DNA of 64,000 nucleotides from an uncultured Myxococcales bacterium (GTDB lineage: Bacteria; Myxococcota; UBA727; JABDBI01). Both the position numbers and the translations under genes were made by a program. The DNA lies in NCBI GenBank assembly GCA_964493205.1, contig CAZBMJ010000002.1:50238-114237 (forward strand). Direction: 5' to 3'. The notes under the pieces are model-generated. The model was not told the DNA's origin, ran no database searches, and saw nothing but the letters and a program-made list of their open reading frames with translations. Shown piece after piece: positions 3,763 through 61,156 of the stretch (position 1 is the first letter of the stretch; each line of letters starts with the position of its first letter).

Positions 3763-4140
3763 TTAGTAACCTTCATAATAGTAAATTGTATATTGATTAG
3801 AAAATAATTTATGAAATATAATTTCGTTAGATTTAACTGTTATTTCATATTGTGTACCATCTCCCCATGCTCTATATACTTTTTCATTTTTTACATCTTT
3901 TTTATCAGTTATAACATACATTTTTATACGTTCTCCTGTATTATGATGTATTACACTATCATAAATATTTATTATATTTACTCGTAGATATCTAGGAGTT
4001 ACTAAAAAATTTTCTTGATACGCTAACGATGTACTTATATAGTTTTGTGTATTACCTATTATAGGTAATAGTAATAATAATAAAATTTTAAATTGTTTCA
4101 TATTTGACGATTTGATTAATAATCTTATAACACTCATCAA
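3763..4140 (-). CDS. Secreted hypothetical protein. The true start is probably the internal Met at ~4101.
   Basis: Signal-peptide-like MKQFKILLLLLLPIIGNTQ begins at residue 14. The upstream extension overlaps the polymerase C-terminal ORF. Confidence 0.45.
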   Translation of the reverse strand: MMSVIRLLIKSSNMKQFKILLLLLLPIIGNTQNYISTSLAYQENFLVTPRYLRVNIINIYDSVIHHNTGERIKMYVITDKKDVKNEKVYRAWGDGTQYEITVKSNEIIFHKLFSNQYTIYYYEGY

Positions 4141-4960
4141 TATACCATTGACGATTTAAATTTGGATATCTTTCTTTTTCTTTAATAATACGTTCTCCTT
4201 TTTTATAATCATATATATCTATTTTAGGTACATTCATTAGTAATGTAACAGGTGTTTGTGCCTGTACTGCTTGTATTGTACCTACTCTTTTTCCTCCTGT
4301 CCATAATTGAGATATAGTTTGAAAACCTCCAGCATAATATCTTATAAATCTACCATCAAATAACTCTGATGTAGCTACACCCTTATCAGGATGGTATTCT
4401 GTTAACATCCATTTATAAAGTTTACTTCCATTATTTCCATAACAAAACTCATGAATATTGTTTTCTTCATTAATAGTATCTTCTATAGGTATTCCTTCTA
4501 TGAAGAATTTCTTTAATGCTTTAGGAATTACTAAGGCACTAAAATCTTTATGATATTCTCCTGATTTTAGTAAATCATCATAATCTTGAAATATGTTTTT
4601 AGTTTTTATATTATTATATGTATCAATAGCTAAATAATTATTAACATCTTTGATAACCATTTTAGTATATTCTACATATTCATAAGGTATATCATCTATT
4701 TCTGTTAATTTATCAAATAAACTTATTGCTAAATCTAATTCAGATCTTTTTATTATAAAAGTAAGACCATCTGTATTAAACTGTAATGGATAAAAATGTG
4801 ATAAGTTAGATTCTAACATATCTACCATCATAGTTAACGTAAGCATACCATTAACAGTTGTACCTATAGTTGCTTTAGTATCATATAGAAAACTATATTC
4901 GCTATTTCCTAACGTATTGTTATCTCTAAGGCTCTTTATCCTTAGATTCTGCACTTTCAT
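4088..4960 (-). CDS. Family B DNA polymerase, C-terminal fragment (motif C plus thumb)
   Basis: YDTKATIGTTVNG resembles the Tx2GR region and LQFNTDGLTF resembles motif C (DTDS-like), downstream of motif B which ends the upstream ORF. A YYAGGF segment is also present. Confidence 0.6.
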   Translation of the reverse strand: MKVQNLRIKSLRDNNTLGNSEYSFLYDTKATIGTTVNGMLTLTMMVDMLESNLSHFYPLQFNTDGLTFIIKRSELDLAISLFDKLTEIDDIPYEYVEYTKMVIKDVNNYLAIDTYNNIKTKNIFQDYDDLLKSGEYHKDFSALVIPKALKKFFIEGIPIEDTINEENNIHEFCYGNNGSKLYKWMLTEYHPDKGVATSELFDGRFIRYYAGGFQTISQLWTGGKRVGTIQAVQAQTPVTLLMNVPKIDIYDYKKGERIIKEKERYPNLNRQWYIDECYKIINQIVKYETI

Positions 4961-5052
4961 TATAGAAGTTATATGTGCAGTCCAGACTATATCTTCATCC
5001 TATAAGGATGTTCCTTTTTCGTGGATAGATTATATTCTCTATAAGAGTTTCA

Positions 5053-6186
5053 CTATCTAGTCGTTACACCTTCATTGTTTGTTAACACAATGCTTGGCTC
5101 GGTATTACTTTCTTCTAAAGCTTTCACCGAATTTAAGGAATGTTTCATATTAGATTGCTCTAATAAGCGGCTGTATCTATAATACATGTTATTTTTTTGT
5201 CTTTGTTTAGTATTTACATTAATTTTAGGATTTATATCATGAATAGTGAGAAATAATATTTTTTTATTATCACCAGCATATTTAAATTGCAATCCTTTAT
5301 AATGTTTTACACGATTATTACAACAATTAGTAATATTTTGAACTTTTAAGTAGCTAATATCTCCAGTTCTAGAATTAGTATTTCTATCTAATATAGGAAA
5401 ATATTTTGGATATTTAATAGAATACTCTTGTATATCTATTGAACTTCTAAAAGTATTAATATATTTACCAAAAGTATCATATACTTCTATATAGGGAGTT
5501 CTGTTTTCTCTTGTTTTAATAGAAGATATCTTTCTAGCTTTTTTAAGTTCTTCAGAAATTGTTTTGGGAACTTTTAAATGATCAAATGTATAACCATTTT
5601 CTTTAGTTCTATTTTTAGAAGAATCTCTAGGAGTAATATAATATATTGCTAATTTCTTATATTTTTTAGGTACATCATCTACAGTTATTTCATTATTTTT
5701 TATTTTTTTTGAATAATTTATAGAAATATTTAAAGTTTCTTTAAAAGATTGTGCTCTTTTTTTATAAACTTCTTCTGAAAATTGATAACCTCCTGTTGCT
5801 TTAATATTAATATTGTAACTAAATTTTTTAGATATACATAAGTCATCTAAATATTTTTGTTCTCTATCGTGTAAAAATTCTAAATTATTAATTATTTCTA
5901 ATATTTCAAATTTAAAAATATTTTCTCCCCATTTATTATATGAAGATTGTAAATAATAATTTTTATGTTTTCCATTTTTTAGGTCTCTAGAATGCTCATT
6001 AAATCTATCTTTAAAAGATCTTCCTGTAGAGCCTACATAAATTTTATTGTTTTTTAAATTTGTAATTTTATAAATACCAAATTTTTCAAAATTGTCTAAA
6101 TTATCTACTATCATTTTATTATTTTTTATTACCACAAAGGTAATAAAAATAATTGTAAATATAGCGTAATAATTAAATTTTAACAT
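5053..6186 (-). CDS. GIY-YIG homing endonuclease inserted between the two DNA polymerase fragments
   Basis: FGIYKITNLKNNKIYVGSTGRSFKDRFNEH matches GIY-(N10)-YVG...R...H. The ATG lies 2 nt after the stop of the polymerase N-terminal ORF. Confidence 0.85.
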   Translation of the reverse strand: MLKFNYYAIFTIIFITFVVIKNNKMIVDNLDNFEKFGIYKITNLKNNKIYVGSTGRSFKDRFNEHSRDLKNGKHKNYYLQSSYNKWGENIFKFEILEIINNLEFLHDREQKYLDDLCISKKFSYNINIKATGGYQFSEEVYKKRAQSFKETLNISINYSKKIKNNEITVDDVPKKYKKLAIYYITPRDSSKNRTKENGYTFDHLKVPKTISEELKKARKISSIKTRENRTPYIEVYDTFGKYINTFRSSIDIQEYSIKYPKYFPILDRNTNSRTGDISYLKVQNITNCCNNRVKHYKGLQFKYAGDNKKILFLTIHDINPKINVNTKQRQKNNMYYRYSRLLEQSNMKHSLNSVKALEESNTEPSIVLTNNEGVTTR

Positions 6187-6190
6187 ATAT

Positions 6191-7348
6191 TTAACTACCG
6201 TAGGAACTATTTAATATAATTTTTAAGCAATGATTAATAATAGGATGTGTTTTCTTACTATATTTTTTTCTCTCATTAAAAGTATTTAAAAGAAATTTAC
6301 CATAACTTTCACCTAAATGAGCAGGCACTCTACCATGTTTCATAGCAAAATGAGGATAATATGAAACTTTATCCCAATCTAAAATTATATATTCTTCACT
6401 ACTTTGATATATACCAGGTTTTGTACTAAAATGTAGACCTCCAGCAGCATATACTATTTCACCATCATAATAAGGAATAATTTTACTAATTTGATTTTTT
6501 AAATTAATAAGTTTTTTATTACTATCAATATTAGATTTTATACTTGCATCAAGAGTTATATTTTTATAGAAATCTAAAGCAGATTTCAATACTGGATTAA
6601 CAAATTTATATTTATTAATATATGGTAATATTACTTCAGAAATAGCTATTTTTTCATTATATGTTTTCAGTTTTTTGACATCTGTTTCACTGATATTTAA
6701 ATCATAAGATAACTGTTTAACCATATATTTTTTAGCTATATCTGGTTCTGTAGAGTTAAGAAGATCTATTTTATTAAAATCTCCAAAATCTATTCTAAGT
6801 TTAAGTAGTTCTTTTGTAAATTTATATACATCTACAGTAGTTTCTACATCATATTTACAATATTTAACAATTTCTTCATCTTGTTTTTCTGTAAGTATAA
6901 GGTCATTAAAATGATAAGGTAAATCTTTAATAGATTTCTTCCTTAAAGAAAATTCTAATTTTTTTAATGATGTAGTTTTAGCACTACGAGGTCCAAAATT
7001 ATTTATAGACATTAAATCTATAGTCTTGTTGCAAAACTCTGATTCTCTATATATGGGCCACTCAGCACCTATATACTCATCATTAAAAGCTTTTATACCT
7101 TCATTGTTTATTGAAGGTCTCTTTGTAATATAAGTTAATATATTCATATCATAAAAAGAATTGTAACCCACAAAGTAAGTATCTTTTTCTTTTATAAGAT
7201 AGTTTTTTAACTTGTCTAATTCATTTATTTGAGTTACTCCATTTACTGTCCATAGTTTAAATGTTAAATATTCCTTGTTATAAGGATCATAAAACACTAC
7301 TAGAAAGTAATTAGGATATACTTCGCAGTCTAGGAAGATTAATCTCAT
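6191..7348 (-). CDS. Family B DNA polymerase, N-terminal fragment (3'-5' exonuclease domain plus palm motifs A and B)
   Basis: Exo I IFLDCEV; Exo II-like YNSFYDMNIL; Exo III YCKYDVETT. Motif A-like LDWDKVSYYPH (DxxSLYPS). Motif B KIILNSSYGS is followed directly by the stop codon. Confidence 0.75.
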   Translation of the reverse strand: MRLIFLDCEVYPNYFLVVFYDPYNKEYLTFKLWTVNGVTQINELDKLKNYLIKEKDTYFVGYNSFYDMNILTYITKRPSINNEGIKAFNDEYIGAEWPIYRESEFCNKTIDLMSINNFGPRSAKTTSLKKLEFSLRKKSIKDLPYHFNDLILTEKQDEEIVKYCKYDVETTVDVYKFTKELLKLRIDFGDFNKIDLLNSTEPDIAKKYMVKQLSYDLNISETDVKKLKTYNEKIAISEVILPYINKYKFVNPVLKSALDFYKNITLDASIKSNIDSNKKLINLKNQISKIIPYYDGEIVYAAGGLHFSTKPGIYQSSEEYIILDWDKVSYYPHFAMKHGRVPAHLGESYGKFLLNTFNERKKYSKKTHPIINHCLKIILNSSYGS

Positions 7349-8040
7349 ATCTTTCTATTTGTATATTGTAAAAATTTTATTATTTTTAATTTATCATAGT
7401 GAATATAATTATCACTTTTATTTTTATATATCCATATAAATCCTTTATATGTGTTTTTATAACCTGAACAACAAGAACTAATAGAACTTAATTTAAAATC
7501 GGGATGATCTTGATTAATTTCTTTTCTAGAAGAATATTGTTTTATAATATTTCTATTAATATCGCATTTTAAAATATAATATTTACTTTGAGAATTAGCA
7601 ATTTTTAAATAGTAATCATTTAATTCTTTTTTCGTAAATTTAGAATATCTTTCTTTTAATCTTAATCTATTTAAATTTTTAGTAGATTCTCTAACTATAT
7701 TACATTCATTACTATTATCTTCTTTACAATTATATCCATATAAAGAATTAGTTACATTATATTTTTTCATATAATGTAATTCTAACTGTTTAAGTAAATT
7801 TTCATCATATTCACTAATAGAAACTAATACATAATATTTGAAATTTTCTATACCATATTTATTTACAGAATTTAATAAATACTGATTTTCTTTCTTACTA
7901 TTATATTTAAAACATGCATTATGAGTAGAAATTCTTTGATAAATATTCTTACTCTGTCCTATATATTTCTTGTTATTTATAGTATTTTCAATACAATAAA
8001 TACCACTTTTATATCTATCTTCTTTTTTTAATTTTAACAT
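7345..8040 (-). CDS. GIY-YIG homing endonuclease
   Basis: SGIYCIENTINNKKYIGQSKNIYQRISTHN. ATGA overlap with the polymerase N-terminal ORF start. Confidence 0.85.
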   Translation of the reverse strand: MLKLKKEDRYKSGIYCIENTINNKKYIGQSKNIYQRISTHNACFKYNSKKENQYLLNSVNKYGIENFKYYVLVSISEYDENLLKQLELHYMKKYNVTNSLYGYNCKEDNSNECNIVRESTKNLNRLRLKERYSKFTKKELNDYYLKIANSQSKYYILKCDINRNIIKQYSSRKEINQDHPDFKLSSISSCCSGYKNTYKGFIWIYKNKSDNYIHYDKLKIIKFLQYTNRKI

Positions 8041-17177: not shown

Positions 17178-18335
17178 AATATTTAATTTAAGAGTTAATT
17201 AATAAAATTATCACTAAGTAATCACACTTAGTCGCACAATGTTGTTATTTATCATCAGAGGTCACTGCAACAATAAACTATAATTATTTATTCCGCAAGA
17301 TTGCTAAAGCAACCAACTACTTGCTTTGTTTTAGATAATTAATTGATTAATTCACTTATTATAGTTCCGCTTTAATCAAATATAACAACTACTACAATCA
17401 TGTTACCATAATTGAGGCATATAATACGTATTATCATTATACTTACAAATCAGTTACAATATTTAGATGTCGTGTCTAAAAGCAATTGTTATACTATTGC
17501 TGATTTATATTATATGCTGCCAAACTACATACTTTACTTAGATTATATACTTACTCTTCATATTACTACTACTTCCGAGTGTATTTTCAAGTATGCTTTA
17601 CAATTCTCTACCAATTATAGGATAGGTGCGTACACTACTACTAGCACGATTAATGATGTTATTCCTACATTACATCAGCTGTTAATTGGTATGATATGTT
17701 ACTAAAACCTTTTGATTGGTGTATTTCAATATTAACAAAATTGTTAATACTCTATACTCACATAGTATAGTTCCCTGTCCTAAATGCACGATGGCTAGAT
17801 ATAATCAAAAGTAACCAGCTTTGTTTGGTTTTAACTATAATGAGGAATCCCACCTCTTTCACGCATACCACAATTAAGTGAGGAAGTGTTGCCGTTCATA
17901 AACTAGCTTAATTAGTATCTTAAAATACAAGCGTGTTCAACCTTAATAACTTTGTTATAGTCCATATTATCTAGCAAGGATAATTGACGTTACCTTGTAT
18001 TTACATCATTAGTCAAACTCAGATGCAAATGGATTTCTATAACAACATAAGTCCCCTCTTTAAACCATTAGGTACTTGTATATAACTTAAGTGATAGGAT
18101 TTATACCCATATGCTGTCCAGGAATGTAATGTTTTAATATATATAATTAAACCATTCCAGGACTTCTACATCTAGCTATTACTTTACGCAATATTGCTCT
18201 GTAAAAAGTCGGAATTGATTTAATTATCTTAACTGTTTTATTTGTATAAACATATTTAAAAAAAATTGTAATTTCTTTAATATATTCATAAGCTTCAACA
18301 TACATAAGATAATATGGATACATAAATAAACTAGT

Positions 18336-19954: not shown

Positions 19955-19988
19955 TTATAATAATTTAGAGGTTAATAAAATAAAAATG

Positions 19989-20059
19989 ATGATTTGCTAG
20001 GACTCGAACCTAAACTACAGAACCAAAATTTGTTGCATTACCAGTTATGTTACAAATAA
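19989..20059 (-). tRNA. Degenerate tRNA-like gene, possibly tRNA-Gln (TTG)
   Basis: Minus strand has a canonical T-arm TTAGG-TTCGAGT-CCTAG and an anticodon-loop-like TTTTGGT (T33, G37). The acceptor stem TTATTTG/CAAATCA has one mismatch, and the D and anticodon stems are imperfect. Confidence 0.4.
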
Positions 20060-20143: not shown

Positions 20144-20764
20144 ATGACAAAAGAAATTTTAATACCATTAATAGAAAAAGGTCTTTCTACTTATAAAATA
20201 GCAAAAGAATTAAATTTAAGTAATTCCACTATTATATATTGGGTTAAATCTTTAGAATTATCTGATTTATATAAATCAATATCTCTTAGAGACAATTTAA
20301 AAAATACAATAAATTATAAATATTCTAAAGAAATTATAGAAGATTTTGCTAAAAATTCAAATTCATTATCAGAACTTCTTGAAAAGTTTAATCTTGTGCC
20401 ACGGGGTAGAAATTTTGATACAATAAAAAAATATATTAAATTACATAATATAGATATATCTCATTTCAATATTAATAAAAATAGAAAAGGTATAATTAAA
20501 GAACGTTCTATTAATAGTTATTTACATAATGAATTTAAAATAGGTAGTACTGCATTAAAGAAAAAACTTTATAAAACTAATCTAAAATTAAGAATTTGTG
20601 AGTTATGTGGTCAAGATGAGATATGGAATAATAAAAAAATGTCTCTTATATTAGACCATATAGATGGAAATTCTAATAATAATAATTTAAATAATTTAAG
20701 AATAGTTTGTCCTAATTGTAATGCTACTTTAGATACACATTGTGGAAAGAATAAACGTTCTTAA
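20144..20764 (+). CDS. HNH homing endonuclease with an N-terminal HTH
   Basis: CELCGQ...LILDHIDGNSNNNNLNNLRIVCPNCN matches C-x2-C...H...N...C-x2-C. The N-terminus YKIAKELNLSNSTIIYWVK is HTH-like. Confidence 0.7.
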   Translation: MTKEILIPLIEKGLSTYKIAKELNLSNSTIIYWVKSLELSDLYKSISLRDNLKNTINYKYSKEIIEDFAKNSNSLSELLEKFNLVPRGRNFDTIKKYIKLHNIDISHFNINKNRKGIIKERSINSYLHNEFKIGSTALKKKLYKTNLKLRICELCGQDEIWNNKKMSLILDHIDGNSNNNNLNNLRIVCPNCNATLDTHCGKNKRS

Positions 20765-21443: not shown

Positions 21444-21513
21444 ACAATAAATTTAAATAATTAAATAATAAACAATTAAAAAGAACATGTGCTATTAACA
21501 CATGTCCTAACTC

Positions 21514-21939
21514 TTAAATTACTACTTCTTTCTTGCGGGATTTTTTAACTTCAGGAACTGCTGTATCCCAATCTGCAAGTAGTGCATTTTCTTCTTCTGG
21601 AGATAATATTACAGGACGTGCTTGCGCTGTTCCTGCATATGCTGCGGTTGTACTCTGAGTTGCTGTTGCTTCATAAGCTCTCTTCTCCTGTAACCATTTG
21701 ACAAATGTTTCTGATTTTTCTTTATCAACAACTGTAATGTCCAATCCATCAAGAGCTAAACCTACGTGTGCAAATGCCTGCAAAACAAATAAGTTCTGAA
21801 GATTATTCTTAAGCATTTTCCAAAAACCTTGGACATTTAATCCAGATGCTCCTGTAATCATACCATTTGTTCTCTCCACTACAAAATGATCTTTGTTAAG
21901 AGAAGATAAATCACTTAGGCTTTTAATAATTTGTGCCAT
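21514..21939 (-). CDS. Hypothetical protein (141 aa); GC-richer
   Basis: Complete ORF. Composition resembles 21027 and 23600. Confidence 0.5.
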   Translation of the reverse strand: MAQIIKSLSDLSSLNKDHFVVERTNGMITGASGLNVQGFWKMLKNNLQNLFVLQAFAHVGLALDGLDITVVDKEKSETFVKWLQEKRAYEATATQSTTAAYAGTAQARPVILSPEEENALLADWDTAVPEVKKSRKKEVVI

Positions 21940-22038
21940 AAAAATTAATTTTTAGATTATATAATAAGGTTAATTAATACAAAAGAAAAACTACCCCATT
22001 GCTGAGGTAGTTATGATCCACTACTACATGGAGAATAC

Positions 22039-22398
22039 TTAACTAGGTATCTTCATGGGTATTCCCAACAGTACACTAATGTATTTTGCTCTAATAGCTG
22101 CTATCGTGGTTGAACTATAAACTGCTGCACCATTATGGTACAGAGTATAAGCACTCCCACTATAAACAGATTGCCATTTACCTTCGGCAGTCCACTCAAG
22201 AGTTTTCTTAGAAGGTATCATTCCTGCAGATGCTTTAACAGCTTTCTCATATTCATCTATTGAATAAGATACTGTCACCATTGTGGTAGTCTTATTAATA
22301 GACTGTGCATTCGTGGATGCTGCAGCCATAATCATGAAAAGAGAAACAAGACCTATGTAAAATAGGTTTGCGTGTTTTTTAAATAATGTGTAATACAT
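22039..22398 (-). CDS. Secreted hypothetical protein; GC-richer
   Basis: Signal-like FYIGLVSLFMIMAAASTNAQS. Confidence 0.5.
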   Translation of the reverse strand: MYYTLFKKHANLFYIGLVSLFMIMAAASTNAQSINKTTTMVTVSYSIDEYEKAVKASAGMIPSKKTLEWTAEGKWQSVYSGSAYTLYHNGAAVYSSTTIAAIRAKYISVLLGIPMKIPS

Positions 22399-22465
22399 AA
22401 GTTTGATTTTAAAGGTTAATTAATAGATAGTATGCATCTTATCAGGAAACCTGAGGATGTATTGA

Positions 22466-22918
22466 CTAAAAATGTTTGTTGTAAGTTAAAGGTTTAGGAA
22501 GTATTTCTTTTACCTTTCTATAAATTTGTACAGATGTAGGGTAGGTGTTATTTAAATAATAGAAGTTTAATAGCCATTTTTTAAATATATCCCATAATTT
22601 ATCATCTAGGTATTTAGCAGTATTATAGTAATTACCTGCAAACTTATTTTTTGTTTTGTGATGAAATCTTTGATAAGTTTTTTTTAAATTTAATTCATTA
22701 AATAATTCATCCATAACCTTAATAGGTTTTTCTTTTATTTGATTAGCAAACTCATAAATGTGATTGTTGTAAGAGTATATTAAACCTATACGTCTTGTTT
22801 CACCTAATATAAATAATTTAGCAATGGTTTTTAAATCATCTATTGAATTACTTGTTGCTATTGGTGATAAACCATCACCCCAACCACTCCAGCTTAAATA
22901 TAAAATATACTTGTTCAT
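22466..22918 (-). CDS. Hypothetical protein (150 aa)
   Basis: Complete ORF with typical AT-rich composition. Confidence 0.45.
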   Translation of the reverse strand: MNKYILYLSWSGWGDGLSPIATSNSIDDLKTIAKLFILGETRRIGLIYSYNNHIYEFANQIKEKPIKVMDELFNELNLKKTYQRFHHKTKNKFAGNYYNTAKYLDDKLWDIFKKWLLNFYYLNNTYPTSVQIYRKVKEILPKPLTYNKHF

Positions 22919-23240
22919 AACTATTTATTTAGAGGTTATAAAATCAAAAGAAAAGTATCAGGACCGTCAGAACCAGTAGTCCAGTTAAGAAGGATTAAGA
23001 CTGTGTAACAATAATACATATTAATGTCATAATTAGGTGATTTTGAGGTAAATTATAGTGAGTATATTTGTGATTGTAATGTATAGGAAGCTCTATCTGC
23101 AACCAAACAGTTGCATATTCATAACTCCTTGACTATCAAAGCCTTATCTCACAATAATTCTACCTAAATTTATACATAAAGCCTGACAAGTATAGCCTAA
23201 ATAGACTATAACTATATCACTAAAGGTATAAAATCACCCT

Positions 23241-23266
23241 ATATAATCAGAGTGATGGAGTACAAA
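23241..23266 (+). repeat. Direct repeat copy 1: ATATAAT-CAGAGTGATGGAGTACAAA
   Basis: A 26-nt unit recurs three times on the plus strand in an ORF-free interval. Each copy starts with a TATAAT-like hexamer. Confidence 0.6.
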
Positions 23267-23492
23267 AAATAATTAAACTAAAAGTAAACTAGCTTAACTT
23301 ACTTGACTCATGCTCTTCTCCTAAAAAGAATGATGATTAAATAAGCTAGCTAGTTTATTAAGTTATCTATTTTGCATCCCATGCAAGAGCATCTTCTCTT
23401 GTCATGATGATTCCATTAACTGATACCATAAGATTTATATTTAGAGGTGAATAATCTTATTAATGATGCAGTATAATTAAATATAACTGCAA

Positions 23493-23518
23493 ATATAAAC
23501 AGAGTGAAGGAGTACAAA
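23493..23518 (+). repeat. Direct repeat copy 2: ATATAAA-CAGAGTGAAGGAGTACAAA
   Basis: Followed by hairpin GGAGCA-TGAGC-TGCTCC and then ATTT at 23541-23561. Confidence 0.6.
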
Positions 23519-23599
23519 AAGAAAAAAAGTAACAACAGCTGGAGCATGAGCTGCTCCATTTAAACCACTGCCTTAGTGGTACTGTCTTACTGCGCAATG

Positions 23600-23878
23600 C
23601 TACAAAGCAGCAAAGTCTGCGTCAGCAAAAATGCTGTTAGCCTTGTCTGTAGCGTAGAATCTCTCTTCACCTTGGGCGTTAGCACCATGAATGATGGTTA
23701 ATCCTGTTAGTCTGTCACCTGCTTTAATCCCTGTGCCCTTAGCAGCAGAGATAAGAATCTCTTCACCTTTGGTGGTACGCACTGCACAAAGCAATACGTT
23801 CTTAGGACTAAGAGCAAAAGCAGAAGCTGTAGCAGCATCAAATGCAGCTTTGAATGTTTGAGTTGTGTAGGATGTCAT
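23600..23878 (-). CDS. Hypothetical Ala-rich protein (92 aa); GC-richer (~45%)
   Basis: MTSYTTQTFKAAFDAATASAFAL... Strong compositional contrast with the genome. Confidence 0.5.
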   Translation of the reverse strand: MTSYTTQTFKAAFDAATASAFALSPKNVLLCAVRTTKGEEILISAAKGTGIKAGDRLTGLTIIHGANAQGEERFYATDKANSIFADADFAAL

Positions 23879-23916
23879 GATTTAAAGGTTTAATGTTATG
23901 AAATATGTACACTCAA

Positions 23917-23943
23917 ATATATCTAGAGTGATGGAGTACAAAG
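23917..23943 (+). repeat. Direct repeat copy 3: ATATATCT-AGAGTGATGGAGTACAAA
   Basis: Third copy of the 26-nt unit, immediately 5' of the start of gene 23600..23878. Confidence 0.6.
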
Positions 23944-24010
23944 CTTAATTACCACAACCGCCTAAGCATCAGCAACAACGCATTAGCAGTTGCTACTAAC
24001 AATAGTAGTG

Positions 24011-24150
24011 AGCACAACACACAAGAACAAGACAACACACAACAACAGTTGCTACCATCACACAGTACACAGACAGACACTAGGAACACACAGCACACGC
24101 TGCAGGCTGCACTGCACAGGAACTAGCACAGAGCAAAGAGAAAACTAAAC
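24011..24150 (+). repeat. A+C-rich, T-depleted low-complexity tract
   Basis: CACAACACACAAGAACAAGACAACACACAACAACAG...ACACAGACAGACAC... has almost no T on the plus strand, in a genome that is ~70% A+T. Confidence 0.5.
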
Positions 24151-24159
24151 ATAACTTCT

Positions 24160-24214
24160 AGTACCCCACCCCCACCTTAAAAGTTTAGAGCAAGGGGGGG
24201 AGGTACTTTTTTTT
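24160..24214 (+). terminator. G/C-run hairpin plus T8; candidate plus-strand terminator
   Basis: GTACCCCACCCCCACCTT...AAGGGGGGGAGGTAC followed by TTTTTTTT. A second G-run GGGGGCGGGGG lies at 24222-24232. Confidence 0.45.
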
Positions 24215-24784
24215 AGCAAAAGGGGGCGGGGGTATAGTGGTACAAGTACACAAACTCAGTACCACATTATATTTTGTAACTACAGACACAAACTCATCTA
24301 CAAAATAATTTAAAATATATTATAAAGTCCGAAAGTCCAGTCCAGCTAAAACACTATATATCCTTCGGACTGGACTTAGATACCTATACCTAAAGAATAG
24401 TTTTTAATATTTTTTAAATTATTTTCATTTTACCCCCATTTATTAAATTTATTTAGCGTATCTTTGCACTATGTTTTTGAGCATAGACTCTGTACCTACA
24501 TTTTTGAGGAGAAATCCTGGTTTAATGTAATTATCAGATGCTGCTAATTATATAGTTCAAGTTCTGAGGATACACTTAATAGTAATGAAGTATCGTTCAA
24601 TAAAACTCCTAACCTAAGTCCTATGATATGGTGAAGAGCAAACTATCAAACAAGACTATATACAAAAACATCAGGCTGGTTAAAAGAAGTAACTGTGAAA
24701 TTTTCACCGTTTAAACCCCCTATGAGCTAGCGAGTAGGGTTTCCAAGATTGGATAGCTTGAGGTATATCTAAAATTAAGTAAAT

Positions 24785-25306
24785 ATGAGAATAGAGCCTA
24801 TTATAAAGGAACTAGAAGAAGTAAAAATAAGACTAAGTAAGTTACAAGATTCTTTAAAAGAGTTTGATGATACTGCTAATAAATATCGTCAACAACTAAT
24901 AATGAAGAGTACTCAATCTGAAAAAGTTATTAAGGTGAAACTTAAATCTCTAAAAATAGATTTTGAATTTCAAAAAATTATAAAAAATAATAAAGCTTTT
25001 AGAATTGTAGATTTTTATTTACCTAAATATAATCTTATTATAGAAGTAGATGGTTTTTATCATTCTGATAATGAACAAAGAGGTAAAGATTTAATAAGAA
25101 CTAATCAATTAGCTGATTTAGGTTACGATAAAATTCTAAGATTAGATAATATAAAAGCTAAAAATATAACAGAAGCTGATTTGTTGAAATTAATTAAATT
25201 AGCTAAGCCTATAAGAAAATCTACAAATAATAAATTACAAAAAATAATAAAATATAAGCAACGTATAGAGCAACTTGAAAAGCTAGTACGAGATTTAAGC
25301 AAATAA
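24785..25306 (+). CDS. Vsr/DUF559-like endonuclease-domain protein with an N-terminal coiled coil
   Basis: AFRIVDFYLPKYNLIIEVDGFYHSDNEQRGKDLIRTNQLADLGYDKILRL matches the ...IExDGxxH...D..R...L..GW.VLR core. Confidence 0.55.
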   Translation: MRIEPIIKELEEVKIRLSKLQDSLKEFDDTANKYRQQLIMKSTQSEKVIKVKLKSLKIDFEFQKIIKNNKAFRIVDFYLPKYNLIIEVDGFYHSDNEQRGKDLIRTNQLADLGYDKILRLDNIKAKNITEADLLKLIKLAKPIRKSTNNKLQKIIKYKQRIEQLEKLVRDLSK

Positions 25307-25328
25307 ATTTTAATTTTAATCTGAATAT

Positions 25329-25366
25329 AAATCCTTAATCTTTTATTAGATTAGGGATTTTTTTGT
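25329..25366 (+). terminator. Rho-independent terminator
   Basis: AAATCCTTAATC-TTTTATTA-GATTAGGGATTT with one mismatch, followed by TTTTTTTG. Confidence 0.6.
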
Positions 25367-25416
25367 TTTACCTAATATATGTCAATTATTTTTCGTAACT
25401 TTGTGTAAATTTAAAT

Positions 25417-25572
25417 ATGTCAGAAGATAGAATAAGTGCATTTGCATTTAATGTGGCAGAACAAATAGAAGATCTTATTAATGTAAGAACAAAAAATCTT
25501 GAAGAGGATAATAGAAAATATGAGTGGGAAAACAATTATGATATAGAATCAATAGAATTTAAAGTAATATAA
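25417..25572 (+). CDS. Small ORF (51 aa), below the ORF-track threshold
   Basis: MSEDRISAFAFNVAEQIEDLINVRTKNLEEDNRKYEWENNYDIESIEFKVI. Same strand as the operon. Weak support. Confidence 0.25.
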   Translation: MSEDRISAFAFNVAEQIEDLINVRTKNLEEDNRKYEWENNYDIESIEFKVI

Positions 25573-55278: not shown

Positions 55279-56058
55279 ATGATTGAAAATAAGTTATCAG
55301 AACTAGGAAAATTAAATAAAAAATCTTTATATTATAATTTACCTTATAATACTACTAAAGATTTAAATTTAATATTATTAAGTTATGCAAATACATCTTG
55401 TTTAGATTCAGAAGAACTATCTGTATATAAGAATTATATAAAAAAATTAACATTTGATTGTACTACTAGTAAGCCTACATTGTTTGTTAATAGTGTAAAT
55501 AAATCTATATGGGAAGAAAATAATCCTGAATGTGTAAATAGAAAGCAATGGGAAAAAATTGCTTTAAAAATTTGTAATAAGTATACAATAGAAATAGAAA
55601 AAATACCTTTAGATACTGTATGTGATATTTCTTTTGAAATAGTTAAAAAAACAATATCTTGTGAAGTTTTAACCACAATAGCTCTACAAAAAAAGCTATG
55701 TGATTTAAATATAACTATAAATAGAACTAAAGATGAATGTGCTACAGATTATAAACTTCTGATAGAAAAATATCCATCTTGTAATTTAAATAAAAAAGAA
55801 TACTTCTGTCTTATAGATAGTAACTTCTCATTTGAAATGGTATCATTAATCTACGATAATAATCTTAGTTTAGAAGTAGATTCCAAAGGCAAGGTAACTC
55901 TTATATCTCCTATAAGACGTTATAAAATACCTGATGAGTTAAAAGTAAATGATGTTATTTATACATCAGATAAACAATTCATTCATAAAATATTACAAGA
56001 CTATAATATATCTAAAAAAACTAAAGAAAATATAATAAATGAACTCAAACAAATATGA
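55279..56058 (+). CDS. Hypothetical Cys-containing protein (259 aa)
   Basis: Complete ORF. Overlaps the start of the giant gene by 20 nt. Confidence 0.4.
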   Translation: MIENKLSELGKLNKKSLYYNLPYNTTKDLNLILLSYANTSCLDSEELSVYKNYIKKLTFDCTTSKPTLFVNSVNKSIWEENNPECVNRKQWEKIALKICNKYTIEIEKIPLDTVCDISFEIVKKTISCEVLTTIALQKKLCDLNITINRTKDECATDYKLLIEKYPSCNLNKKEYFCLIDSNFSFEMVSLIYDNNLSLEVDSKGKVTLISPIRRYKIPDELKVNDVIYTSDKQFIHKILQDYNISKKTKENIINELKQI

Positions 56059-59000
56059 GATTAGGATACGTGCTACCGTAAATGGTGTAGAAAAAGTTCC
56101 TAGCAAAATCACATGGATACAAGGTAATGATGAATGTTTAGCTACCCCTTGTTATAAAGAAAATGATTATTTAGTAGTTAAACTAATACCCGACTGTGTA
56201 GGTAATGCCTGTATAGAAGGGTATTTGCATTTTGATGATACGTGCACCAATTGTGAACCAGAGCATTTTAAAAGATGTTTTTGTAATACAGATGCTGATT
56301 GTCCTGATTGCTCTCAATGTGATGAGAATTATGGTATTTGTGTAGATCAATGTAAAGAAGGAGAATTCTGTAAAGATGATGCTTGTATAGAGTGTGATGA
56401 GAATACTCCTTGTCCTAATAATCAAATATGTATTAATGGTCATTGTGAATGTCCACCTAATATGTTTAAAGATGGTAATAGATGTGTTGAATGTACTTCT
56501 ACTACTAATTTAGGTAAATGTTTTGAATGTATTAATGGAGTTATTACTCCTAAATGCGATAAAGCATGTATTGAGCTTACAGGAGAATGTGTTGATTGTA
56601 TAGGTTCAGGAGATTGTTTAGATAGAACAGATGGTAAAAACTGTTGTTCTGATAATCAATGTGATTGTTGTAATGGTTTTGAATGGGATAATCTTCTTAA
56701 ACAATGTGTACCATCTTGTAATGAAACTACTTGTAATGAGTGTGAGAGATGTACTAAAGATGGTTGTCAACCAATACAATGTCCTGAAGGATATAAGTGT
56801 TATAAAGGTGAATGTGTATATTGGCCTTGTGAATCTGTATCTTGTGATAATGGAGCAGAATGTGGTCCAGAATGTGGATGTGTAGAGTTTGAAGGTGTTA
56901 AACAGTGTGTACCTTGTTATATATTAGAATGTAATGGTTTGTGTGAACAAGCATTAGGTTGTAAATGTAATGGTACAAAATGCGAATCTTCAGATAATTG
57001 TAAGGAAACTTATTGTGATAATGAGAACCCTTGCGAAGATCCTAATTGTACATGTTATGATAATAAATGTGTAGATTGTTCTAACTTTCCTTGTGTAGAT
57101 GAGGGTGGTTGCTCAAGCTATGATAATTGTGGATGTAACGAAGATAATAAATGCGAAGGTACTGGTTGTGAAGGTGGTTTAACTCTTAAAAAAGAGGAAG
57201 ATTGTACTTCTACTACAGGGTGTAAATTAAAAGCAGAGTTTTCTGTAAAAGCATGTAAATGCGATCCTATAGTATTTAAAACTAAAAATACAGTAACTTG
57301 TACATCAACTAGTGATGCTATAACTCTAAAAGTAGAATTGTTTAAAAAAGTAAATGGAGCAGATATTCCTTATAGTTCTTATAAGACTTCTCCTTATTTT
57401 GCTGATGATGAATTAGTTTCTACACAAATAAGAACTGTAGCAGAATACCAATATCTTAAAGATGGTAAATTCTACTCTTATAGTGGTACAGTGGTTACTT
57501 CTCCTATGCCTTCTACAGGTATTATGAATAATGTTATATCAAACTTAGTACTTAATAGTTCTCACATTAAGAAAACTATTACAGTAGGTGGAGTTTCTTA
57601 TCCTGCTAAAGTAACTATTAAAGTGTTTGCTGATGCAACTAAAATTCAGAATGCTAATTGTACTAAATACGAATCTACAGCTAAGATTGCTGAATATGTT
57701 TTAGACTACAGTTCAGCTCTAGCAACAACAGACACATGTAATAAAATAAATACTACATATAAAACAGAACAAGTTATTTCTGTTATAGACGATAAATCTG
57801 CTAAAAGACCTAGATTTACTTGGTATAGATCTAATACTTCTACTTTTGAAGATGATGAGTTTATATATGATGGTACATATAACGAGAGTGGATGGTTTAG
57901 AAAATCATTTGGTACTTTAGTAAGTGGTAAATGGATAGATGAAATAAATAATACAGCTAAATTTGAAGATAATTCTAAAGGTGAATTACTTTCTAATTAT
58001 AATTATTTAGTTAAAGCTGATTGTGGTTGTGGAACTAAAGTTGATAGTTTACAGAAAGTACATTTCTGTTGTCCTAAAGATTTTACATATACAATAACTC
58101 CTTGTGATAAAAAAATAGTAATTAATCCGTTTTCAGTATGTTCTATAAATGATACATTACCTACTAGTTATAGTATACCAACTGAATGTCAAGTAAAATA
58201 TAACTTAGAAGTTCTTTTAGATTCAGGAGCTGTAATTAAAAGTCAACTTCCAAAATCTGGTTTAACTAAAACATATCCAGATGCAATTGTATCTGCTAAA
58301 ATTATACAATTTAATTCAGGAGGTATATTAACAGAAGAAGATTATTGTACTTTTATGTTAACTGTACCAGAAGTAACTTTACCTACTCCAACAATTACTG
58401 TTGATTGTAATTCAGTTACTGATAAGTTTAGAGTTACTTTTACTCAAACTAGTCCTTTAAATATAGATAAAGTTGAAGTATTAGCAAATGGTATTAAACT
58501 TACTCCAGAGATTTTTAAAACAACTCCTGGGTTAACTGCTCTATATGATAAAACAATATCTAATAGTCACTTACCTACAGGAGAAGATCCGCAAGGAAGA
58601 GTTAGTGGAGTAATTGTAAAATTACAAGCTAGAGTAACATTTAGTAATGGTTGTAGTAAAATTATAGATTTAACTCCATGTAATCCTTCATTAACTGTAA
58701 CAGAGAATCCTTCAGGAGCAACTTCTAGGTTAAATTGTCCTCAAGGAGGTCAAGGTGTAGAATTAGATTCTTACTTAGAAGGATTTGATATGTCTCAACC
58801 TGTATTATTTACTATATCAGGTGGTACATTAACTGAACCTCTTACTAATGGTACAGGTACATTTACAAATTTAGGAGCAGGTACTTATACAGTAGTTGCT
58901 ACTCAAGGAGCTTTAACATCAACAGCAACTAAAACTATATTTGATGCTACTGCACCTACTGTAACTTTAACTTCTAGTATATGTCCAGGTGAAACAGGTA

Positions 59001-61156
59001 CATTAACTATTACTGCACCAGCAGGTTCTATATTTAGTGTTATGGGTCCAACAGGTTCTATATCTATACCTCCAATACCTCAATCAGGAGTATATAATAT
59101 AACAGGATTAACAGCTTCAGGTACATATACTATAACAGGAGGTATAGATAATAATAATCAAACATGCTATCCTTTTACTTGGACTGGTAATATGGTATTA
59201 GGTGGTCAAGTATTAAATCCTATATTTTCTCCTATAGCATATGGAAATTATTGTGTAGATATACCTATAGAAATTAGTATTATAGACGGTGTAAATGGTA
59301 AAATTTATAATATTGCAGCTATTTCTGGTTATATAACAGATCAAGCAGGTAATAATGTAACTCAAATGATTTCTGGTCAAACATATTTTTATACACCTAC
59401 TTCTATAGGAAGTAATGCTGTACAAATTATAAGTATAGATAGTACTTGTGATACTTTGTTAACAACACCAGTTACTAGAACTTTTATTACAATAGTACCT
59501 GCACCTAATGTATCTAATATTGTAGTGCAATGTGTAGATGGTTTATATAATGTATCTGCAACAGTAACAGTTTCTTCTGGCACTATATCTAGCGTTTTAA
59601 TATCTGGTATACCAGCTACAAATATAGGTTCTACTTATTCTGTAACAGGAGTACCTTATGTAGAAAATTTAATAGCTACAAGTTCTAACGGATGTATATA
59701 TCAAGCTATATTACCAATCGCAAACTGTAACTGTCCATCAGCTACATTAACAATAACTGGACCTATAGTACCTTTATGTGGTGATCAATTAATTACATTA
59801 ACTGCATTACCTCAATTAAATCCTAATATTGCAACAGGAGCTTGGACATATCAATGGTATGATGCAGGCCCTCCAAATTGTAATAACTGTACACCTTTAG
59901 CAATAGGTGCTCAAGGTTCTTGGGGTTCTCAACCTGTAGAATTAGTAGTAAATGCTAGTGGTAGCGGTTCATATTTTTTAAGAGTTATTAATAACTTAAA
60001 TCCTGAATGTACTTATACAAGTAATACTTATTCTTATACAGTAGATAATCCACCAGCTACACCAATTATACAACATACTCCAACAAACATAACTGTTGGT
60101 AATTCTGTAACATTTAATACTGGATATTCTAATTATTCAACGTATGCATGGTATTTAAATGGTGGAACAACGCCTGTATCAACAAATTCTACATATACTT
60201 TTACACCTACACTCTCAGGTAATTATACTATATCAGTAACTGTTAGTAATGGAAATTCTTCATGTACTGCAACTGCTTCAGACTCTTTTGAAGTTACTTC
60301 TGAATGTAATAAAATAGGAATTTTTAACGTTACAAATCCAAATACAACTTGTCCTACACAAGCTACTGTAAATTTAACTAATCCTGATAATATCTCTTTT
60401 AATTGGGTAATAGTTGCTGTAAATGAACTTACTACTAGTGATTTAGTAGGTTTAACAGGTAGTGGTACAGGTAATAGTTTTACTTTTGATTTAACAACAC
60501 CTAATACAGATCCAGGAGAGGATATAGATAATATAAGTTTTGTATTTAGTTATACTCTTATAGGAAATGAAGACTGTACACAACCACCAATTACTATACC
60601 TTGGGAGTATACTAGATGTGATAAAGGACCTGTTGATTTAATGTTAGATAATACAAGTACTTGGAGAGATATTTTTGCTACTGATTATACATTAGCTAGT
60701 TTAATATCTACTGAAACATTAGTATTTTTAACAGATATTACTATTAATACTAAAATAGGTAATAATAATACAGTGAGTAATAAAATATACTCAAATTCTG
60801 GTTCAGCTTCTCCAGAACACGAATATAGATTATATCATGATCATGCAACTACTGGTTGTACAGGAATAGATGATGATGCTAAATTTAAAACTGCGGTTGA
60901 TTCTTGGTTTGGTACTAGTAGAACAGTAACATCAACAATTGCAGATTTAGTAATAACAGTTCAAAATAGATTAAATGCTATACCAATATTATCTGGTATT
61001 GTTGTAAGTAATTCTAGTGGTAATTTAAGATTTAGTAATGTTCCTTGTGAAGTTCAACAAATAGTAGGTACAGTATTTTATACAAATTCTACAGATTGTG
61101 TATTTACTGATATTGAAAAGAAAAATGCTAGTCAATATGTTATTCCTTCTTGTTAA
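56039..61156 (+). CDS. Giant cysteine-rich repeat protein (1705 aa), probably a tail fibre or adhesin
   Basis: The N-terminal ~400 aa consist of dense CxxC/CxC EGF- or furin-like cysteine repeats (CECPPNMFKDGNRCVEC, CDCCNGFEWD...). The remainder is Thr/Ser/Gly/Asn-rich with beta-domain-like repeats (Ig-like segments). Confidence 0.5.
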   Translation: MNSNKYEIRIRATVNGVEKVPSKITWIQGNDECLATPCYKENDYLVVKLIPDCVGNACIEGYLHFDDTCTNCEPEHFKRCFCNTDADCPDCSQCDENYGICVDQCKEGEFCKDDACIECDENTPCPNNQICINGHCECPPNMFKDGNRCVECTSTTNLGKCFECINGVITPKCDKACIELTGECVDCIGSGDCLDRTDGKNCCSDNQCDCCNGFEWDNLLKQCVPSCNETTCNECERCTKDGCQPIQCPEGYKCYKGECVYWPCESVSCDNGAECGPECGCVEFEGVKQCVPCYILECNGLCEQALGCKCNGTKCESSDNCKETYCDNENPCEDPNCTCYDNKCVDCSNFPCVDEGGCSSYDNCGCNEDNKCEGTGCEGGLTLKKEEDCTSTTGCKLKAEFSVKACKCDPIVFKTKNTVTCTSTSDAITLKVELFKKVNGADIPYSSYKTSPYFADDELVSTQIRTVAEYQYLKDGKFYSYSGTVVTSPMPSTGIMNNVISNLVLNSSHIKKTITVGGVSYPAKVTIKVFADATKIQNANCTKYESTAKIAEYVLDYSSALATTDTCNKINTTYKTEQVISVIDDKSAKRPRFTWYRSNTSTFEDDEFIYDGTYNESGWFRKSFGTLVSGKWIDEINNTAKFEDNSKGELLSNYNYLVKADCGCGTKVDSLQKVHFCCPKDFTYTITPCDKKIVINPFSVCSINDTLPTSYSIPTECQVKYNLEVLLDSGAVIKSQLPKSGLTKTYPDAIVSAKIIQFNSGGILTEEDYCTFMLTVPEVTLPTPTITVDCNSVTDKFRVTFTQTSPLNIDKVEVLANGIKLTPEIFKTTPGLTALYDKTISNSHLPTGEDPQGRVSGVIVKLQARVTFSNGCSKIIDLTPCNPSLTVTENPSGATSRLNCPQGGQGVELDSYLEGFDMSQPVLFTISGGTLTEPLTNGTGTFTNLGAGTYTVVATQGALTSTATKTIFDATAPTVTLTSSICPGETGTLTITAPAGSIFSVMGPTGSISIPPIPQSGVYNITGLTASGTYTITGGIDNNNQTCYPFTWTGNMVLGGQVLNPIFSPIAYGNYCVDIPIEISIIDGVNGKIYNIAAISGYITDQAGNNVTQMISGQTYFYTPTSIGSNAVQIISIDSTCDTLLTTPVTRTFITIVPAPNVSNIVVQCVDGLYNVSATVTVSSGTISSVLISGIPATNIGSTYSVTGVPYVENLIATSSNGCIYQAILPIANCNCPSATLTITGPIVPLCGDQLITLTALPQLNPNIATGAWTYQWYDAGPPNCNNCTPLAIGAQGSWGSQPVELVVNASGSGSYFLRVINNLNPECTYTSNTYSYTVDNPPATPIIQHTPTNITVGNSVTFNTGYSNYSTYAWYLNGGTTPVSTNSTYTFTPTLSGNYTISVTVSNGNSSCTATASDSFEVTSECNKIGIFNVTNPNTTCPTQATVNLTNPDNISFNWVIVAVNELTTSDLVGLTGSGTGNSFTFDLTTPNTDPGEDIDNISFVFSYTLIGNEDCTQPPITIPWEYTRCDKGPVDLMLDNTSTWRDIFATDYTLASLISTETLVFLTDITINTKIGNNNTVSNKIYSNSGSASPEHEYRLYHDHATTGCTGIDDDAKFKTAVDSWFGTSRTVTSTIADLVITVQNRLNAIPILSGIVVSNSSGNLRFSNVPCEVQQIVGTVFYTNSTDCVFTDIEKKNASQYVIPSC

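Follow-up and report, generated by a model that had tools for sequence, protein, structure and literature searches.

The DNA stretch analysed here, hereafter the window, comprises 64,000 nucleotides (nt) of contig CAZBMJ010000002.1, and this report concerns a short direct repeat whose copies stand at the head of its leftward genes, adjoining the point from which transcription diverges. Judged by its gene content, the window is a tailed-phage genome of the crAss-like type with two divergent gene blocks. Thus, the large terminase (776 amino acids, aa), the portal protein (840 aa) and the major capsid protein (512 aa), all in the rightward block, have size-matched crAss-type matches in PHROG. The closest terminase among GenBank phages is that of Cellulophaga phage phi14:2, a member of the Crassvirales (32%), and the matches ranking after it come from Flavobacterium phages, Bacteroides crAss-like phages and crAssphage itself; at the nucleotide level, a megablast of 8 kb against the GenBank phages gave no match. 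The leftward block, that of replication, consists of the minus-strand genes between 583 and 23878 and holds the DNA polymerase together with many small open reading frames (ORFs), while the plus-strand genes of the rightward block run from 24785 on. An earlier note on this DNA had placed all neighbouring genes on the minus strand, which holds for the left side of the repeats and fails on the right. The G+C content across the window is 21–37%. In the leaders that were inspected round the repeats, no Shine-Dalgarno sequence precedes the start codon and TAAA-type motifs stand before the ATG, as has been described for Flavobacterium leaders (PMC2483708); the host phylum is likely to be Bacteroidota.

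The three direct copies reported in the earlier note were found at 23241–23266, 23493–23518 and 23917–23942, and are numbered 1 to 3 in this order. A repeat finder extends them to one three-copy family of 35 nt with 83% identity (23241–23275, 23493–23527 and 23917–23951), the copies being spaced by 252 and 424 nt. The 18-mer AGAGTGATGGAGTACAAA within the repeat occurs three times in the window when up to three mismatches are allowed, against 0.06 occurrences expected, and none of 100 shuffled sequences reached three. Read on the minus strand, the consensus of the copies is TTTGTACTCC(A/T)TCACTCT-N3-TATAT(TTG/AGG). On that strand, copies 2 and 3 contain an exact TTTG-N17-TAnnTTTG, with the TAnnTTTG part (termed the -7 box below) exact in both, and the corresponding box of copy 1, TATATAGG, is the weakest of the three. 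An exact motif scan of IMG/VR gave only two matches, both within unrelated coding DNA, and the same scan of the GTDB genomes gave 28 scattered single matches in unrelated taxa, which by our estimate is about the chance level. The motif is therefore not an element of the host or one in widespread use.

Relatives were sought through the proteins encoded nearby. Contigs with a homologue of the 92-aa protein, whose gene lies between copies 2 and 3, form group A (L164, L168), group B (L165–L167) and group C (L169–L173), which are ~95, ~87.5 and ~74% identical to the window, respectively. Two further short contigs are window-like upstream of the 92-aa gene (L208) or group C-like (L209). L004 is a more distant relative, with 79% identity for a 202-aa protein encoded nearby and 68% for the terminase. 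It was the one true relative found in IMG/VR with the 202-aa ORF; searches there with the 150-, 92- and 119-aa ORFs returned no relatives, and the 394-aa ORF returned unrelated contigs only. A metagenome scan with the 202-aa ORF added one relative contig, L084, which ends before the repeat region.

Conservation of the motif in relatives, to which the earlier note had tied its proposal, was looked at in these contigs. Groups A and B keep all three copies at the same places, and the group C contigs have at least two. Copy 2 is conserved in L164–L168 and has a variant form in L169–L173. The group C copies carry common lineage-specific changes (CTTGTACTCA..CACTCC), indicating that copies change together within a genome. 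L004 has four copies of the form T8-10 ATTAACA N3-4 CACTCTG NN TATCT. What these have in common with the window is CACTCT-N3-TAT(A/C)T, whereas the upstream half is specific to the lineage, being TTGTACTCC in the window and ATTAACA in L004.

The repeat is probably a promoter, repeated on the minus strand and thus on the same strand as the genes it precedes. Four independent observations set the orientation of the motif. First, the -7 box of copy 3 stands 36 nt from the ATG of the 92-aa gene (at 23878). Second, the same distance recurs in L004: an 87-aa ORF, dissimilar to the 92-aa protein, has the counterpart repeat 35–36 nt upstream. Third, between window-type sequences and group C (L169, L209), the alignable footprint runs from TTGTAC to the ATG and all sequence further upstream is unalignable. 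Fourth, the hairpin GGAGCA-TGAGC-TGCTCC, which the earlier note saw downstream of copy 2 and which is indeed present at 23541–23557, 23 nt past that copy, stands 41 nt beyond the 92-aa gene's stop codon. On the minus strand a long T-rich tract comes next, and the scanner called the hairpin a minus-strand terminator.

The earlier note had read the repeat the other way, as TATAAT-type promoters on the plus strand that make short antisense or intergenic RNAs. Copy 1 does begin with TATAAT on that strand, and a G/C hairpin followed by T9 at 24162–24225 (plus strand), downstream of copy 3, could end an RNA. However, a sigma-70 scan of the plus strand called no promoter at any copy and found no -35 element, and the TATAAT-like start is unconserved, with GATAGT, GATAAA, ATTAAC and GATAGG at the four L004 copies. 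The footprint, moreover, extends to the minus-strand gene, while the side that would be downstream on the plus strand is unalignable between lineages, and the hairpin beyond copy 2 is followed by a mere ATTT on the plus strand as opposed to the long T-rich tract on the minus strand. Bacteroidota, for their part, do not use TATAAT/-35 promoters of the sigma-70 type (PMC7366714). We therefore regard plus-strand promoters as highly improbable: the notion of a repeated promoter was probably right, the strand and the products were not. Nor is the interval free of ORFs, as the earlier note had it, since copies 2 and 3 have the minus-strand 92-aa gene between them and a 20-aa micro-ORF occupies 23367–23429.

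On the minus strand, the copies, here called modules P3, P2 and P1 in the direction of reading, divide the head of the block into three units (Table 1). We consider it likely that these are minus-strand promoter modules, two of them with an upstream terminator, which open the leftward block of a crAss-like phage. Each module would consist of a hairpin and T-run that end the preceding unit (for P2 and P1, not for P3) joined to the block TTTGTACTCC(A/T)TCACTCT-N3-TATAT(TTG). P3 would serve the 92-aa gene, with transcription ending in the terminator region that follows it; P2 would give the structured RNA that includes the micro-ORF; and P1 would give the long leader and, beyond it, the 150-aa ORFan and a long operon. 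The timing of the leftward replication block is presumably early.

Table 1. Proposed promoter modules, transcription units and terminators at the head of the leftward block, in window coordinates
Feature	Position	Strand	Description
Module P3 (copy 3)	23914–23942	minus	TTTGTACTCCATCACTCT-AGA-TATATTTG; predicted promoter of the 92-aa gene
P3 start site, if sigma-A reads P3	predicted near 23909	minus	
92-aa gene, first cassette	23600–23878	minus	recognised by homologues and codon-position bias
Terminator region after the 92-aa gene	23519–23599	minus	hairpins 23565–23579 and 23540–23558; T-rich tract 23519–23539 into P2
Module P2 (copy 2)	23490–23518	minus	TTTGTACTCCTTCACTCT-GTT-TATATTTG; predicted start site near 23485
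P2 unit, putative structured RNA of ~220 nt	23267–23485	minus	long helix (arms 23342–23357 and 23285–23296), then T-rich tract 23267–23284
Module P1 (copy 1)	23238–23266	minus	TTTGTACTCCATCACTCT-GAT-TATATAGG; predicted start site near 23233
Leader after P1, ~315 nt	22919–23233	minus	without conserved ORF
150-aa ORFan, replaceable slot	22466–22918	minus	different gene here in L164

The 92-aa ORF is a real gene, since its protein has four diverged homologues (P0002–P0005, 77–88% identity) in addition to one identical NCBI entry, and since the substitutions relative to L169 fall mainly on third codon positions (15/10/50 by position). No family match was obtained for the 92-aa protein (Pfam, PHROG) or for the 150-aa ORF, and an exact-sequence look-up with the window's 92-aa protein gave no match. 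An AF2 model of the protein, with a pLDDT of 41.8, was unusable and was set aside. The two hairpins after the gene have kept their pairing through five compensatory double changes among the window, L165 and L169. T-runs stand directly before P2 and P1, the one before P1 following the long helix, and T8-10 precedes all four L004 copies.

The P2 unit folds with a z of -3.2, and none of 200 shuffles was equally stable. The earlier note had proposed a long-range complementarity between copies 1 and 2. Both of its 8-mers, ATGCTCTT (at 23310) and AAGAGCAT (at 23385), are present in the sequence, but they are not paired with each other in the minimum-energy fold. The micro-ORF (minus strand, MVSVNGIIMTREDALAWDAK) has the leader CCTCTAAATAnAAAT..ATG in common with the 150-aa ORF, and its group B variant, MCVHHGIIMTREDALAWDAK, differs in the first five codons while frame and length are kept. 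The retained frame and length are weak evidence that the micro-ORF is translated. By comparison, the fold of the leader after P1 is not unusual (z of -0.6). Its positions 23000–23233 are 95–100% identical in groups A and B, after which homology breaks.

What the units contain turns over, and at least once the repeat itself marks the junction. L210–L213, which are relatives of L004, have three copies as against four in L004. They lack the 186-nt P2 cassette of L004 and have a chimeric promoter at the junction. The segments that BLAST aligns on either side overlap over 32 nt, which are the repeat itself; homologous recombination between direct repeats leaves such a signature. Elsewhere, the interior of the 92-aa gene is 72–75% identical between the window and L164 or L208 while the flanks are 100% identical; in group B other sequence takes the place of the P2 unit's 5' part, beginning directly after the -7 box; in L164 both flanks of the 150-aa ORF's slot match, but homology is lost from 22916 to 22469; and in group C a tRNA-Leu and ~900 nt of other sequence follow P2. 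The cassette content thus differs among the window, groups A, B and C, and L004. These other breakpoints of cassette or allele exchange lie in nearby conserved leaders, terminators and gene ends. The near-identity of the direct repeats leads us to propose that the modules would also act as recombination sites.

A deletion junction within the repeat could also be expected if the copies were sites for a protein, used in recombination (for instance an attC-like cassette exchange) or as iterons of a replication origin, as the earlier note had suggested as its alternative, and had no promoter function. Direct repeats near the strand switch would suit an origin, as would the minimum of the cumulative GC skew at ~24–25 kb, close to that switch, and two HNH endonuclease genes (20144–20764 and 24785–25306) flank the region. 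Yet gene orientation switches at the point where the skew changes, so that the latter is not independent evidence of an origin. The spacings, with a gene and terminators between copies and each copy in a promoter context of its own, are unlike those of iteron arrays. No initiator or integrase family was detected in the eleven neighbouring ORFs scanned, and plain homologous recombination between 30-nt repeats suffices for the deletion. The fixed distance to the start codon and the -7 box would also be left unexplained. Sites of this kind are, in our judgement, very unlikely, and the minus-strand promoter modules remain the better account of the repeat.

Which polymerase reads the modules is a separate question. 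TTTG-N17-TAnnTTTG is of the -33/-7 type that forms the consensus of the Bacteroidota primary sigma factor, exemplified by B. fragilis sigma-A (PMC7366714), and the -7 box of Flavobacterium has been positioned at -12 to -5 (PMC9723704). From the TAnnTTTG and TTTG boxes we infer that the reader would most likely be a host primary sigma factor of this kind. Both elements are exact in two of the three window copies, and the lack of Shine-Dalgarno sequences in the leaders is a further likeness, in this case to Flavobacterium (PMC2483708). A TAnnTTTG-like box stands at a fixed position in both lineages, a TTTG stands at -33 in the window and in groups A–C, and the units end in classical intrinsic terminators. 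Among 12 distinct copies in the relatives, the -7 box is exact in five, and the others have one or two mismatches or a 1-nt offset while the distance from CACTCT stays constant.

A second class of promoter-like sequences points in the same direction. It consists of AATACC(C), ~23 nt, a T-rich stretch with (c/t)G and TAnCTTTG, and is found in the window at 24424–24466, 25396 and 28937 (plus strand) and 28849 (minus strand), and in L004 at 6834, 7241, 11687 and 11589. These sites precede rightward genes and the exonuclease gene and are conserved between the window and L004 lineages. They resemble the 'tripartite' middle promoters of phi14:2, from which the upstream block differs. The existence of this second class indicates that the transcription units headed by the repeat form a class of their own. 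Two classes with a common -7 box and different upstream parts would fit temporal control through upstream elements acting on the host enzyme.

Several observations weigh against this account of the modules and their reader. First, the spacing is TTTG-N17, compared with TTG-N20-TAnnTTTG in all four of the named phi14:2 middle promoters, and the spacer sequence is itself highly conserved; indeed, the stretch from one box to the other is the best conserved of all, an unusual feature if this were a plain host promoter. Second, the boxes are imperfect in places. The -7 box deviates in P1, as noted, and, in groups A and B, in P3 (TATATCTG); within TTTG, one or two mismatches are present in P1 and in several of the relatives' copies; and the L004 copies lack the TTG at -33 altogether. 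In F. johnsoniae, no -33 motif was recovered (PMC7366714). Third, no terminator lies immediately upstream of P3, and a cassette-deletion junction falls exactly within the repeat in one case only, the other breakpoints being in leaders and gene ends. Fourth, the early block of phi14:2 is transcribed by the virion polymerase and not by the host enzyme (10.1101/2020.03.07.982082). Finally, promoter activity and start sites are themselves predictions from the DNA sequence. The conserved stretch between the boxes could reflect homogenisation of the copies by recombination, or it could be an extra recognition element for a factor.

The fourth point leads to a different reader for the same modules. 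With position and strand unchanged, they might be promoters for an RNA polymerase packaged in the phage virion, a homologue of phi14:2 gp66. This enzyme would enter with the DNA, and the 18-mer would be a specificity element that co-evolves with it, as in T7/T3/SP6. The replicative block of phi14:2 is early and is transcribed by the rifampicin-resistant gp66. In addition, the motif is longest and best conserved where host promoters are unconserved, its upstream half is lineage-specific (TTGTACTCC versus ATTAACA), its spacing is unlike that of the phi14:2 middle promoters, which the phi14:2 paper assigns to the host RNA polymerase, and its few copies are clustered at the block head like the pre-early promoters of the P23-45 virion polymerase. 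On the other hand, the early transcripts of phi14:2 showed no common upstream motif, the host-type TAnnT(T/A)(T/A)G box is found at a fixed distance in both lineages, and the units end in classical hairpin and T-run terminators. The polymerase gene is also unconfirmed for this phage, as no ORF in the window contains DFDxD. A 1705-aa ORF (56039–61156, plus strand) was considered as a candidate virion RNA polymerase and was rejected: it is without DFDxD, has PKD-domain matches only and has no match among GenBank phages.

If a virion polymerase or a comparable factor were involved, the finding would gain considerably in interest. For a crAss-like two-barrel virion polymerase, the 18-mer would then be the first promoter element to be recognised, or else it would be the site of a virion-delivered or early factor that redirects the host polymerase. 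The array would be the entry point of infection, and the cassettes would serve in host takeover or anti-defence. The 92-aa protein, the micro-ORF or structured RNA and the long leader would then be fast-evolving cassettes, exchanged between strains through the repeats. We consider both the virion-polymerase promoter itself and this wider scenario rather unlikely, though far from negligible. As the reader of the modules we place the host sigma-A ahead of the virion polymerase, narrowly and not by much.

Among known systems, the closest functional parallel to the minus-strand modules is offered by the PeSL (promoter-early stem-loop) elements of T4-type phages, repeated cassettes that pair an early promoter with a stem-loop, flank ORFans and mediate modular shuffling (PMC2839356, PMC4122927). 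In both cases, short repeated composites of terminator and early promoter with an A/T-rich stretch upstream separate small ORFans from one another where the genome is hypervariable, they form cassettes that are transcriptionally self-contained, and recombination of one copy with its neighbour removes or adds a cassette. Thus, the window and its relatives show a repeated promoter joined to a terminator (P2, P1 and L004, not P3), a variable region rich in ORFans and an indel junction in the repeat. What is absent is the sigma-70-like -35/-10 promoter in a T4-type myovirus: no sigma-70-type promoter was called at the copies, the phage belongs to the Crassvirales, its host to another phylum, and the promoter is of the Bacteroidota -33/-7 type. 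There are, furthermore, three or four copies in one array at the block head, compared with dozens over several regions for PeSL, and some cassettes here appear to be non-coding or to encode a micro-ORF. Because promoter type and phage group differ, we regard the repeats as a functional analogue of PeSL and not as a member of that class.

The closest cultured relative, phi14:2, offers the closest biological parallel. Its replicative module is early, and it makes abundant sense-strand long non-coding RNAs, which come from long intergenic regions between the early genes g004 and g006 (10.1101/2020.03.07.982082). No common motif was found upstream of its early transcripts (10.1101/2020.03.07.982082). 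The likeness lies in the replicative block as the early class; the difference is that the non-coding stretches of phi14:2 are several kb into the block and not at its head. In the phi14:2 record, the first 9 kb, which cover part of the early block, do not contain the window's 18-mer, and the first 6 kb show no comparable repeat.

Tandem early promoters at a genome end are familiar from T7 (A1, A2 and A3) and from N4 (P1–P3 of the virion polymerase). The T7 A promoters lie within ~250 bp with no terminators between them, and those of N4 are DNA hairpins. With these and with P23-45, the present array shares the clustering of a small number of closely similar promoters at the start of early transcription. 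The N4 type of hairpin, with a 5–7-bp stem and a 3-nt loop, is not seen here: the 26-nt motif contains no inverted repeat, and groups A and B lack the inverted repeat that flanks P3 in the window.

How transcription starts in crAss-like phages is poorly understood, and for phi14:2, the one model studied, an early promoter motif could not be found. The present lineage has a sharply defined and concertedly evolving motif with a clear strand, located where early transcription should begin. The findings also suggest that cassette shuffling mediated by repeats, which is documented for the promoter-terminator elements of T4-type phages, occurs in Crassvirales infecting Bacteroidota as well, at the very site where small, fast-changing early genes and RNAs are kept.

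Several non-coding stretches next to the repeats deserve mention. The stretch at 23945–24160, on the far side of P3, is strongly strand-biased, with A and C abundant on the plus strand and G and T on the minus strand, and has internal short repeats. It is 95–100% identical in L164 and L208, and in group C the sequence is different with a similar composition. Its L004 counterpart lies downstream of the fourth promoter copy and ends in a T8 run; no fourth copy of the motif was found in the window. The stretch may represent a G/T-rich non-coding RNA. Beyond it, at the divergence point (24162–24235), homopolymer runs of G and C (CCCCACCCCCACC, GGGGGGGAGG, T9 and GGGGGCGGGGG) raise attention at a local G+C of ~33%. 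Two G-runs are present in L004 (6605–6650), G and C runs in group C (L169 530–615), and similar homopolymer runs in the divergent region of phi14:2 (L176 45920–46050). The fold of this element is no more stable than those of shuffles, and the hairpin is not conserved in L004. A role as origin, terminus, bidirectional terminator or polymerase entry site is possible.

Two further non-coding stretches are better conserved than the genes next to them. Positions 24397–24602 are 77% identical to L004, and 24384–24799 are 99.8% identical to L166; positions 11972–12165 are 92% identical to L004 and lie within a 1.4-kb ORF-free gap (10816–12199). Another long gap spans 17178–18335. The two conserved stretches could be counterparts of the phi14:2 long non-coding RNAs, and neither has an Rfam match. 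For the whole window, Rfam gives two transfer RNAs (tRNAs) only, and a permissive scan of 21500–25500 gives one sub-threshold chance match.

Those two tRNAs, tRNA-His (14622–14696) and tRNA-Gln (19988–20059), are on the minus strand in the leftward block; in relatives, a tRNA-Leu(taa) adjoins the cassette array (L169 2136–2220, L004 4650–4733). Between 19955 and 22918, small genes amounting to ~3.5 kb are additional or rearranged in the window relative to L004. The HNH or homing-endonuclease PHROG matches at 20144–20764 and 24785–25306, mentioned above, are plus-strand ORFs on either side of the variable cassette region. Finally, the DNA polymerase gene looks split (4088–8040, minus strand). 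PHROG 1252 matches both 6191–7348 and 4088–4960, and the gene is interrupted by homing-endonuclease-like ORFs at 5053–6186 and 7345–8040, whose PHROG matches include the GIY-YIG family.

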